A stretch of DNA of 64,000 nt from Escherichia coli. GTDB lineage: Bacteria > Pseudomonadota > Gammaproteobacteria > Enterobacterales > Enterobacteriaceae. Shown piece by piece: positions 6,690 to 12,721 of the stretch (its first letter is position 1; the number at the start of each line of letters is the position of its first letter). Location of the stretch: the NCBI RefSeq assembly GCF_016903815.1, contig NZ_CP069973.1; one strand, 5' to 3'. The notes beneath the pieces were generated by a model, which saw only the letters and a list, made by a program, of their open reading frames with translations, searched no databases and had not been told where the DNA came from. Position numbers and translations under genes: made by a program.

Positions 6690-10080
<3,391 letters not shown>

Positions 10081-10308
10081 CGCACAGTCCATTCTTAATC
10101 AAATGATTGATTAAGATTATGACTCCATATGGGAGTTGTCCAGTATGACCAGGAATTTTAGCAACGCCAGTCACAGGGATAATTTATGCGCTGCGTCACA
10201 AAAACTGCTACACTCCGCTCCCTCATGACATTGTGGTTTTTGTCATTTTCCTTTTCAGTATCTCCCTGAAAACTACACCGGTAACGGTCGGGGCGGTTCG
10301 GAGTAGTT

Positions 10309-11673
10309 ATGTCTTTCGATTCTTTGGGTTTAAGCCCTGATATCCTGCGCGCCGTTGCCGAGCAGGGTTACCGTGAACCCACCCCTATTCAGCAGCAGGC
10401 GATCCCTGCGGTGCTGGAAGGCCGCGACCTGATGGCTAGCGCCCAGACTGGCACCGGCAAAACAGCGGGCTTTACGCTGCCGCTGTTGCAACACCTGATC
10501 ACTCGCCAGCCGCACGCCAAAGGGCGTCGTCCGGTACGTGCGCTCATTCTTACCCCGACCCGTGAACTGGCGGCGCAGATTGGCGAAAACGTCCGTGATT
10601 ACAGCAAATACCTGAACATTCGTTCGCTGGTGGTGTTTGGCGGTGTCAGCATTAACCCGCAGATGATGAAGTTGCGCGGCGGCGTTGATGTGCTGGTTGC
10701 AACGCCGGGACGTCTGCTGGACCTGGAACATCAGAATGCGGTGAAGCTGGATCAGGTTGAAATCCTCGTCCTCGATGAAGCTGACCGCATGCTCGACATG
10801 GGCTTTATCCACGATATCCGTCGCGTGTTAACAAAACTACCTGCGAAGCGCCAGAACCTGTTGTTCTCCGCGACCTTCTCTGACGATATTAAAGCTCTGG
10901 CGGAAAAACTGTTGCACAACCCGCTGGAAATCGAAGTGGCACGCCGCAATACCGCGTCTGATCAGGTGACCCAGCATGTTCACTTTGTTGATAAGAAACG
11001 CAAACGCGAATTGTTGTCGCACATGATTGGGAAAGGGAACTGGCAGCAGGTGCTGGTGTTTACCCGTACCAAACATGGCGCTAACCATCTGGCTGAACAG
11101 CTCAATAAAGATGGCATCCGCAGTGCGGCGATCCACGGCAATAAATCGCAAGGTGCGCGTACCCGTGCGTTGGCTGATTTTAAATCGGGCGATATTCGTG
11201 TACTAGTGGCAACTGACATCGCTGCGCGCGGTCTGGATATCGAAGAGTTGCCGCACGTGGTCAACTATGAACTGCCAAACGTACCGGAAGATTATGTTCA
11301 CCGTATCGGGCGTACCGGTCGTGCGGCTGCTACCGGTGAAGCGTTGTCGCTGGTGTGTGTTGATGAACACAAACTGCTGCGTGATATCGAAAAACTGCTG
11401 AAAAAAGAGATCCCGCGCATTGCGATTCCGGGCTATGAGCCGGACCCGTCAATCAAAGCCGAACCAATCCAGAACGGTCGCCAGCAACGTGGCGGCGGCG
11501 GTCGTGGGCAAGGTGGTGGTCGCGGTCAACAGCAACCACGCCGCGCTGAAGGTGGCGCAAAATCTGCGAGCGCGAAGCCTGCAGAAAAACCATCTCGTCG
11601 TCTTGGCGATGCCAAACCGGCAGGCGAACAACAACGCCGCCGCCGTCCGCGTAAACCTGCCGCTGCGCAGTAA
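10309..11673 (+). CDS. rhlE: ATP-dependent DEAD-box RNA helicase RhlE
   Basis: 454 aa with Q-motif, Walker A (AQTGTGKT), DEAD box ([13 protein letters not shown]) and Arg/Gly-rich C-terminal tail. Confidence 0.93.
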
Positions 11674-11679
11674 TCTTTT

Positions 11680-11700
11680 ATGCCGGGCGATGCCCGGCAT
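11680..11700 (+). terminator. GC-rich hairpin just after rhlE stop (weak or no U-tract)
   Basis: atgccgggc-ga-tgcccggcat palindrome immediately 3' of rhlE; no strong T-run follows. Confidence 0.35.
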
Positions 11701-11760
11701 CTTCGCAACAAGTCTCTTTCTACCGCAATTTTATCCTGGGCAATTTACGATCAAGGTGCT

Positions 11761-11779
11761 GCAATTTATTATTAATTGC
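11761..11779 (+). promoter_or_regulatory. inverted repeat GCAATT-N7-AATTGC in the toxin-antitoxin promoter region (candidate autoregulation operator)
   Basis: Palindrome gcaatttattattaattgc read in sequence about 50 bp upstream of the antitoxin start; AT-rich promoter-like context. Confidence 0.35.
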
Positions 11780-11829
11780 TCTATCTTTAATTATAAATTG
11801 CATGCTGTATACAAAGAGGTTAGCGCATT

Positions 11830-12270
11830 ATGGCACCAGAAACGATCGATCACTCAACCTTACATAAACTGGTTGAATCTGGCGTAGTGGATGCAGCACA
11901 CGTTATTGGCACCCAGGGAGGCTGGTCGTTGACCGTGAAATACGGCCACACTGAACGGCCTCTTGCAGCACAACGCAGTCGGCAAATCCGCCTGTTCAAA
12001 CGGCTGGAAACGGTTGTCAACTACCTGAAAGATGTTGGTATTGCCCGGTTTGAAGTCGACGCCTCTAATTACGACCCGGACGGTCAGAAGAAAACGACCC
12101 GACCAGACAGGGCTGAGGCATTAAAACGAGCTCATGAAGCTGCCGCGTATGATGCCTGGTTTCGAGAGCAGGTGCAGGCCGCCATTGACGATCCACGCCC
12201 GGCACTCTCTCATGAAGAGGCCAAAAGTCTATTTGCTGCCCGTAAAAAAGCCTTGCTGAAGGGGGATTAA
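11830..12270 (+). CDS. putative antitoxin, 146 aa: uncharacterised N-terminal domain fused to a PaaA2/ParD-like C-terminal ParE-neutralising segment
   Basis: C-terminal AYDAWFREQVQAAIDDPRPALSHEEAKSLFAARKKALLK resembles PaaA2-type antitoxins (…DPRPAIPHDEV… as recalled); stop overlaps the toxin start (taATG); SD-like aagagg upstream. Confidence 0.6.
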   Translation: MAPETIDHSTLHKLVESGVVDAAHVIGTQGGWSLTVKYGHTERPLAAQRSRQIRLFKRLETVVNYLKDVGIARFEVDASNYDPDGQKKTTRPDRAEALKRAHEAAAYDAWFREQVQAAIDDPRPALSHEEAKSLFAARKKALLKGD

Positions 12271-12551
12271 TGCGTCTGGAATGGAAGCCAATGTCCCTGT
12301 CTGACAGGGAGCAAATCATGGAATACATCAGTAAAGATAATCCGCTAGCGGCAATAGCCCTTGATAATCAATTTGAAGCCATTGCGGAACAGGCCTGTGA
12401 ACGCCCGGAGATGTACCGGGCCGGACGAGTCGCTGGTACACATGAAGCCGTTGTCAGGCCGCATTATGTGCTTGTCTATCAAGTGGAGGGCGATACGCTC
12501 TCGGTACTGCGTGTTTTACATACCGCTCTGCAATGGCCGCCAGCGGAATAA
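12270..12551 (+). CDS. parE: ParE/RelE-superfamily toxin (type II toxin-antitoxin system)
   Basis: 93 aa; …YVLVYQVEGDTLSVLRVLHTA… is the typical ParE C-terminal signature; translationally coupled to the upstream antitoxin. Confidence 0.75.
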   Translation: MRLEWKPMSLSDREQIMEYISKDNPLAAIALDNQFEAIAEQACERPEMYRAGRVAGTHEAVVRPHYVLVYQVEGDTLSVLRVLHTALQWPPAE

Positions 12552-12687
12552 GCTGATGTACAATGTCTTTTGCTGCACAATGATGTTTCTTCTGCCGCGA
12601 GAAAACTTCACATCCGGAAAACGTTATTGCGAGCCGCTTTCCAGAAACAGAAAAACCATTACCCCTGAAAACCGAAAAATGCCACAA

Positions 12688-12707
12688 TATTGGCTGTTTA
12701 TACAGTA
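12688..12707 (+). promoter_or_regulatory. LexA (SOS) box of the dinG promoter
   Basis: tattggctgtttatacagta (CTGT…ACAG type) 15 bp upstream of the dinG ATG; dinG is a known LexA-regulated gene. Confidence 0.6.
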
Positions 12708-12721
12708 TTTCAGGTTTTCTC

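Follow-up and report, generated by a model that had tools for sequence, protein, structure and literature searches.

What is a tightly packed pair of small plus-strand genes doing between rhlE and dinG on an Escherichia coli chromosome, and what is the role of the folded domain that its antitoxin carries in front of a PaaA2-like tail? The question is raised by a 64,000-nt stretch of the Escherichia coli contig NZ_CP069973.1 (the window; all coordinates without another label are positions in it), in which an initial annotation had recognized a coupled pair encoding a long, composite antitoxin and a ParE-type toxin. On balance, we favor the interpretation that this pair is a functional, chromosomal two-gene type II toxin-antitoxin module of the ParE/PaaA2 class, with a two-domain antitoxin that represses its own operon. 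The logic of the pair is that of standard ParE toxin-antitoxin systems; the N-terminal domain of the antitoxin is non-canonical and uncharacterized, and the operator is putative.

The gene pair and its toxin

The pair and the cassette that carries it are delimited as follows:

11702..12622, no strand: the cassette, 921 bp; in a blastn comparison of the window with K-12, homology stops at 11701 and restarts at 12623
11815..11819, plus strand: Shine-Dalgarno-like AGAGG, 10 nt 5' of the antitoxin ATG
11830..12270, plus strand: antitoxin gene, 146 aa, WP_001522657.1, from the open reading frame (ORF) call and a RefSeq match
12270..12551, plus strand: toxin gene, 93 aa, ParE family, WP_001522659.1, from Pfam PF05016

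The translational coupling proposed at the outset is evident from the ORFs and the sequence: the antitoxin stop codon TAA (12268-12270) and the toxin ATG (12270-12272) have one base in common in a TAATG overlap (12268-12272). The two genes thus show the layout of type II systems, being small, adjacent, co-directional and translationally coupled, with the antitoxin first. The same order and tight spacing recur in 54 related loci, and both ORFs are intact and 100% identical across many genomes.

The toxin likewise displays the ParE/RelE fold and sequence signature of a type II toxin. It matches the Pfam ParE_toxin profile PF05016 with an E-value of 1.3e-13, and its AlphaFold2 (AF2) model consists of an alpha-hairpin followed by a three-stranded sheet, with a predicted local distance difference test score (pLDDT) above 92. 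Among solved structures it is closest to ParE2 of E. coli O157 (5cw7_B; E 1.7e-6), with 29% identity over 86 columns, and it ends, like ParE2, in H-x3-Q-W-P, the general form in the family being H-x3-Q-(W/F)-P. The ParE assignment of the initial annotation is therefore upheld, and the sequence evidence points to a ParE2-like member of this group.

Domain architecture of the antitoxin

Three segments can be distinguished in the antitoxin:

11830..12069, plus strand: ParC-like alpha/beta domain, residues 1-80, putative DNA-binding and dimerization module (AF2, profiles)
12100..12111, plus strand: RPDR motif, residues 91-94, invariant in two homologue alignments
12109..12267, plus strand: PaaA2-homologous segment, residues 94-146, putatively ParE-neutralizing (Pfam, PDB homology, co-fold)

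That the antitoxin is composite and ends in a PaaA2-like tail, as had been suspected from the sequence, is borne out by profile and structure searches: residues 104-130 match the toxin-binding region captured by the Pfam PaaA2 profile (PF21217; E 4.2e-10), which places the protein in the PaaA2 family, and residues 83-139 align with the PaaA2 chain of 3zbe/5cw7 (E 2e-4). RefSeq calls the protein either 'antitoxin PaaA2 family protein' or 'hypothetical protein'. A direct Pfam-A scan returned nothing for residues 1-95. The precomputed Pfam labels of its homologues are PF28031 ("ParC-like") and PF21217, and the NCBIfam model NF041544 (ParC family partition-associated protein, 80 residues) matches residues 6-83 (E 3.5e-8) over model positions 2-78 of 80, at 33 bits and thus far under its cut-off of 95 bits. 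The N-terminal domain is homologous to ParC, the NCBIfam and Pfam profiles being the sole source of this link, yet the protein itself lies outside the NF041544 family.

A separate N-terminal domain is also what the AF2 model of the antitoxin predicts (48-sequence alignment; mean pLDDT 88.9). With pLDDT values of 95-98 this domain is confidently folded, and comprises a helix (residues 8-17), three strands (20-28, 31-38 and 41-46), a second helix (59-69) and a final strand (75-77). R49 and R54 are invariant or nearly so, as is R51 in the closer homologues; all three fall between strand 3 and helix 2. The RPDR motif, which standalone ParC-like proteins without a toxin partner also retain, is situated just past or in a lower-confidence linker, where the long helix 94-120 begins, and a second C-terminal helix spans 128-145. 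Upon co-folding with the toxin (paired 32-sequence alignment), residues 111-140 go from a pLDDT of 78-88 to one of 95-96, and this gain in model confidence supports a model in which the tail would fold onto the toxin in the way that PaaA2 folds onto ParE2.

Two simpler accounts of the N-terminal region, both foreseen in the initial annotation, were looked at. A ribbon-helix-helix (RHH)/ParD architecture is ruled out by the Pfam scan and the fold comparison, which recovered no RHH, helix-turn-helix (HTH), AbrB or Phd/YefM fold in this domain. A frameshift or fusion artifact is ruled out since the same architecture of 145-150 aa recurs in hundreds of clusters of homologues, and is under purifying selection.

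A conserved palindrome in the promoter region

The DNA ahead of the antitoxin gene contains the following elements:

11725..11801, no strand: cluster of five GCAATT(T) half-sites, putative operator region (0.04 expected in 77 bp)
11744..11772, plus strand: sigma-70-like candidate TTTACG-17 nt-TATTAT, by consensus match only, assignment uncertain
11760..11802, no strand: larger inverted repeat TGCAATTTATTATTAA / TTAATTATAAATTGCA, 16-nt arms, 11-nt gap, 94% complementary
11761..11779, no strand: core palindrome GCAATTTATTATTAATTGC (GCAAT-N9-ATTGC), putative antitoxin operator, from exact match and conservation

The palindrome GCAATT-N7-AATTGC that had first been noticed in the promoter is indeed present at 11761-11779, and is the sole exact GCAAT-N9-ATTGC in the 64 kb. 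It is part of a larger cluster: direct half-sites begin at 11725, 11740 and 11761, and inverted ones lie at 11774-11779 and 11795/6-11801, all within the 128 bp 5' of the antitoxin gene. Five GCAATT in 77 bp compare with 0.04 expected from the rate in the window (Poisson P ~1e-9). The third half-site, TATAAATTGCA, is kept in the enterobacterial homologues. The candidate -10 hexamer sits in the middle of the palindrome; several weak promoter candidates overlap the repeats, and the -35/-10 assignment is not firm.

The same palindrome recurs ahead of homologous genes in unrelated genomic contexts. Among 61 non-redundant upstream regions, 34 match GCAAT-N9-ATTGC at no fewer than 9 of its 10 positions, versus 0.25 in shuffled controls. 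The enrichment is restricted to a spacing of 9, the distance to the start codon is 48-79 nt, and the surrounding upstream DNA is otherwise unrelated. Examples come from Rhodoferax (TTGCAATTTATTGTTAATTGCG), Serratia inhibens (GTGCAATTAATAGTTAATTGCA), Pseudomonas (TTGCAAACTATTATTGATTGCG and TCGCAATCAACTATAGATTGCA) and a member of the Rhizobiales (TTGCAAATTATAATTGATTGCA). In many homologues the left half-site forms a -35-like TTGCAA, and past the right half-site there is TA(G/T)(C/A)AT. The palindrome would appear to belong to the mobile unit, to be under constraint and to overlap the core promoter, and in these respects it looks like an autoregulatory operator. Its conservation in sequence, spacing and position across homologues is a comparative result, and it is here that the new element of this work lies.

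Phyletic spread, partners and selection

A search with the full-length antitoxin recovered 900 clusters at E <= 0.001; nearly all of the best 120 are 143-161 aa long and bear the same two Pfam labels, their sources including Salmonella, Xenorhabdus, Photorhabdus, Serratia, Propionivibrio, Luteibacter and metagenomes. A search with the N-terminal domain only, against 50%-identity representatives, gave 416 clusters: about half of the best 150 have a PaaA2-like tail, and the other forms, of 80-120 aa, stop soon past an RPDR-ALKR motif. The 'unusually long' antitoxin of the initial annotation is thus long relative to O157 PaaA2 but not in general, the long form being widespread and its family already catalogued (Pfam ParC-like plus PaaA2; RefSeq name).

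In a scan of loci with the closer homologue set, taking one genome per species, 78 loci were found in Gamma- and Betaproteobacteria, plus one Rhizobiales and one Caulobacter genome. A ParE homologue is encoded directly 3' in most of 85 loci, including all the nearest full-length homologues, across many genera, so that the conservation check suggested initially finds the two-domain form recurring widely with a toxin gene downstream. The architecture occurs on both chromosomes and plasmids of Gamma-, Beta- and some Alphaproteobacteria, e.g. as a complete pair adjoining an IS6 transposase on a Klebsiella IncFIA plasmid, and the ParC-like domain is present on 401 plasmid records (Xanthomonas, Rhizobium, Aeromonas), always annotated as hypothetical.

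The toxin and each of the two antitoxin halves show purifying selection, with pN ~0.14 and pS ~0.7 in comparison with the Salmonella, Klebsiella-plasmid and Erwinia copies; against the copy at the same site in Escherichia whittamii, dN/dS is ~0.04, and far below 1 for both genes. Degraded copies are also seen, with a truncated toxin in one Xenorhabdus locus (L007) and a split toxin in another locus (L032). In P0131, a metagenomic representative of 171 aa, a single ORF runs from the ParC-like domain and RPDR straight into the C-terminal half of a ParE toxin, probably through a deletion that fused antitoxin to toxin.

The ParC-like domain also occurs in other settings. On the Xanthomonas citri plasmid pXAC64 (L088, 1805-2856), the gene for a 149-aa ParC-like-domain protein overlaps by 4 nt that for a 201-aa M48 metalloprotease; the domain thus has a different partner here, possibly in a protease-coupled module. 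The ParC-like domain is present on about 200 Xanthomonas plasmids. Standalone ParC-like proteins of ~110-116 aa, ending in RPDRxEALKRTRT..., are encoded in Achromobacter animicus (L068, 2339-4434) and Pseudomonas sp. S30 (L071, 1024-4438), directly 5' of a ~530-aa ORF that is methylase-like by sequence judgement alone; in Pseudomonas, an ORF read as an integrase, likewise from its sequence, lies just upstream of the ParC-like gene. The Achromobacter gene is preceded by GCAAT-N4-ATTGC, i.e. the same half-sites at another spacing. The 5.7-kb E. coli plasmid p2-S1-IND-01-A (L089, 2998-3267) has a standalone 89-aa ParC-like gene with no GCAAT palindrome 5' of it, and on small non-mobilizable E. 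coli and Aeromonas plasmids such an 89-aa gene stands beside an unrelated opposite-strand pair of RelE/ParE and DUF6290 genes.

Predicted mechanism and alternative explanations

By analogy with other ParE toxins, the free toxin of this pair would probably poison DNA gyrase and thereby trigger the SOS response. The C-terminal two-helix segment of the antitoxin (residues ~94-145) is predicted to fold onto the toxin and probably blocks it. The N-terminal ParC-like domain (1-80), probably with the basic RPDR-ALKR stretch, most likely dimerizes, and the antitoxin dimer would most likely bind the 19-bp GCAAT-N9-ATTGC together with the neighboring GCAATT half-sites. With the operator overlapping the promoter, the operon is therefore proposed to repress itself, a proposal built on the comparative conservation. 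Degradation of the antitoxin would free the toxin, with gyrase poisoning and SOS induction to follow. A fused DNA-binding or regulatory module, as had been suggested from the outset, is the best explanation available for the N-terminal domain, and the cross-genus conservation of the palindrome argues for it indirectly; the DNA-binding part would then most likely be a fold not known from characterized antitoxins.

Several observations weigh against this interpretation. The N-terminal domain resembles no known DNA-binding antitoxin fold, its nearest solved folds being eL38 and the FtsH periplasmic domain, both weak matches (Z <=7.7, Foldseek E >=4e-3), and its pI is just 8.2. About 27 of the 61 upstream regions fall under 9 of 10 matches; promoter elements could account for part of the palindrome conservation, the left half being a -35-like TTGCAA in many homologues; and the palindrome is absent 5' of the standalone ParC-like genes on the small E. 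coli plasmid and on pXAC64. As noted above, the evidence from the co-fold consists of pLDDT values. The target of O157 ParE2 is itself given only as 'likely' topoisomerases and is not firmly established (PMC8630535), and no experimental work on the antitoxin or its N-terminal domain was found in the literature searched. In particular, searches on PaaA2, ParC-like antitoxins, ybiA-dinG and Rms149 parC yielded no study of a two-domain antitoxin.

Some of the same observations favor an alternative in which the pair is still a ParE module, but the ParC-like domain does not bind DNA and could instead serve oligomerization or antitoxin stability, be recognized by a protease, or contact a partition or host factor. 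In that case the reader of the palindrome would be the basic RPDR-ALKR helix, the whole toxin-antitoxin complex or a host regulator. Besides the fold, unlike those of known DNA-binding domains, and the standalone genes that lack the palindrome, this alternative can draw on the pairing with an M48 metalloprotease on pXAC64 and on NCBIfam, which relates the domain to the IncP-6 'auxiliary partition protein' (PMC4785139). It has to contend with the cassette encoding no other protein able to read the palindrome, and a host-specific reader is unlikely because the palindrome accompanies the cassette in genomes and hosts that are unrelated. The near-invariant basic residues R49 and R54 (and R51 in closer homologues) between strand 3 and helix 2 also speak for DNA binding, as does the established use of the N-terminus by canonical type II antitoxins to bind their operators. 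We consider this alternative unlikely, if by no means far-fetched.

The doubts about the toxin are of lesser weight. ParE and RelE have one fold in common, and the toxin passes the broad cut-off of the NCBIfam model TIGR02385 (RelE_StbE; 38.5 bits against 27.9), which is why some RefSeq records, in several genomes, name it a RelE/StbE mRNA interferase. Several results speak against a ribosome-dependent mRNA interferase of this type in place of a gyrase poison. BLASTP aligns only 13 residues of the toxin with E. coli RelE, whereas the alignment with ParE2 runs end to end. None of the RelE catalytic residues K54, R61, R81 and Y87 occurs in the toxin family, which also lacks the C-terminal helix of RelE but has the ParE2-like end, and the partner antitoxin is of the PaaA2 type. 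By these features and by its nearest similarity to ParE proteins the toxin belongs to the ParE subfamily; an interferase of the RelE type is very improbable. That the cassette is an inactive remnant, neither toxic nor regulated, persisting in the rhlE-dinG gap, might be entertained in view of the degraded copies (L007 and L032) and of the C-terminal H-A-x-Q-W-P motif, in which the window toxin shows T/L at the positions that are A/(R,Q) in most homologues. Yet the promoter palindrome is perfect, and both ORFs are intact and under selection (dN/dS far below 1), so that a decayed remnant is hardly credible. The interpretation as an active, self-repressing ParE/PaaA2-class module is the one carried forward below.

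The cassette in Escherichia coli and its position next to dinG

The cassette replaces 706 bp of K-12 that consist of repetitive extragenic palindromic (REP) sequences and the minus-strand ybiA (1795-2500 of the K-12 comparison locus, L002). By alignment to K-12, its left boundary (11701/11702) lies just past the rhlE terminator hairpin and its right boundary (12622/12623) 99 bp ahead of the dinG start; the flanking genes are rhlE (10309..11673) and dinG, which begins at 12722. The K-12 comparison agrees with the initial annotation in placing ybiA on the minus strand of the rhlE-dinG interval, where it points away from dinG, and a tblastn search of the 64-kb window found no YbiA-like sequence (best E 1.9), again as first stated. 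YbiA is a NADAR-type ADP-ribose hydrolase, and recent papers describe it as a member of the NADAR enzyme family that undoes the ADP-ribosylation of guanine (PMC11125620, PMC11543638). Strains with the cassette have lost ybiA, with none left in this window.

Within the 921 bp there is no third ORF, and hence no PaaR-like gene, the neighbors being rhlE and dinG. Rfam yielded no known RNA within the cassette, neither protein matched the PADLOC anti-phage catalogue, and a PHROGs search gave families of unknown function only. The remaining segment is:

12552..12622, plus strand: cassette 3' tail, without a recognizable intrinsic terminator; folding z-score -0.63

Of 5426 complete E. coli genomes, 324 (6%) have the cassette, always on the chromosome, in single copy and at the same site; 236 of these copies are at least 99% identical and form one allele group, and 88, at 95-99%, form the other. 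In Escherichia whittamii the cassette likewise occupies the rhlE-dinG gap (L010, 1-5438, against window 9329-14768), with 93.9% identity in the cassette, 93.6% in the rhlE flank and 94.3% in the dinG flank. As the E. whittamii cassette is as diverged as its flanks, we take the cassette to be an old alternative allele of the gap and not a recent insertion. A 100%-identical cassette adjoins dinG alleles that are 2.4% apart, which suggests exchange by homologous recombination; recombination in the flanks would probably spread the cassette among lineages. In E. coli SF-088 (L092, 1-2500), phage tail genes and a recombinase gene adjoin the dinG promoter in place of ybiA or the cassette. With ybiA, the cassette and these phage genes as occupants, the gap 5' of dinG has at least three alternative contents and counts as a variable spot.

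The toxin gene ends close to the dinG operator, as first annotated (137 bp claimed; the sequence gives 136 nt): at 12688-12707 stands TATTGGCTGTTTATACAGTA, which we take to be the non-canonical LexA box of dinG. No intrinsic terminator was detected between the toxin stop and dinG, so read-through into dinG is physically possible; a repressed toxin-antitoxin promoter would add little transcription to it. In this window dinG (12722-14873) is frameshifted by one extra G near 13801-13803 relative to an intact allele, leaving the overlapping ORFs 12722..13813 and 13728..14873, and RefSeq labels it a frameshifted pseudogene in strain 7/2. Because at least 15 complete genomes are 100% identical over a 4.6-kb stretch that includes the frameshift, the loss of this SOS helicase gene is a trait of the lineage, in which read-through is therefore moot.

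Comparison with known systems and evolutionary implications

The closest known system is paaR2-paaA2-parE2 of the E. coli O157:H7 prophage CP-933P (3ZBE, 5CW7, 5CZE), whose ParE2 is the nearest solved relative of the toxin and whose PaaA2 is homologous to antitoxin residues 83-139, with ~35% identity over the DPRPA core. Gene order, antitoxin then toxin, is the same in both. In contrast to PaaA2, which at ~63 aa is a short, intrinsically disordered single-domain protein, the 146-aa antitoxin has an extra folded N-terminal domain of 80 aa. The initial annotation was right that PaaA2 is short and served by a separate regulator: PaaA2 is without a DNA-binding domain, and the CI-like PaaR2, product of a third gene, regulates the operon in the prophage immunity region (PMC8630535). 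Whereas the O157 system thus has three genes in a prophage, the cassette has two in a chromosomal intergenic gap, with no separate regulator gene and no prophage context, and the regulatory module is proposed to lie within the antitoxin itself.

The authors of that study ask if an ancestral DNA-binding domain of PaaA2 was lost (PMC8630535). The long two-domain antitoxin is a good candidate for the ancestral architecture of PaaA2. A wider reading, which we put forward tentatively and hold to be a real possibility short of a probable one, is that the ParC-like domain is an unrecognized sequence-specific DNA-binding fold, distantly eL38-like, that acts as a dimer on GCAAT-N9-ATTGC and serves as a portable regulatory head for ParE antitoxins, IncP-6 ParC accessories, integrase-linked standalone forms and the partner of the M48 protease on Xanthomonas plasmids; O157 PaaA2 would then be a truncated descendant that lost the head, its regulation having passed to the prophage repressor PaaR2. 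If true, this would resolve the question of PaaA2 evolution posed in PMC8630535, supply a likely full-length ancestor for PaaA2, a model intrinsically disordered protein, and explain the separate O157 regulator. It would also add a class of operator-binding antitoxin domain beside RHH, HTH, AbrB/SpoVT and Phd/YefM, and give the "ParC-like" domain, annotated as hypothetical on hundreds of plasmids, a first testable function. For E. coli itself, ~6% of genomes have swapped YbiA for a probable gyrase poison right upstream of the SOS gene dinG. The gains are otherwise incremental and entail no conceptual change, the toxin-antitoxin logic being standard and the proteins already in databases.

Two further systems help to place the pair. 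ParD-ParE (RK2, Caulobacter, Vibrio cholerae ParD2-ParE2) combines a ParE toxin with a palindromic promoter operator and a two-part antitoxin whose C-terminal segment wraps the toxin; the overall logic of the cassette is the same, its operator being putative. The operator-binding domain is N-terminal in canonical type II antitoxins, and in ParD it is of the ribbon-helix-helix (or Phd/YefM) type, whereas the N-terminal domain of the cassette antitoxin is alpha-beta3-alpha-beta. IncP-6 ParC (NF041544; PF28031) offers the homologous domain of ~80 aa, and is described only as an 'auxiliary' partition protein (PMC4785139). No parA, parB or other par genes flank the antitoxin in the window or its chromosomal homologues and, unlike ParC, the cassette antitoxin ends in a putative toxin-binding tail and is paired with a toxin.

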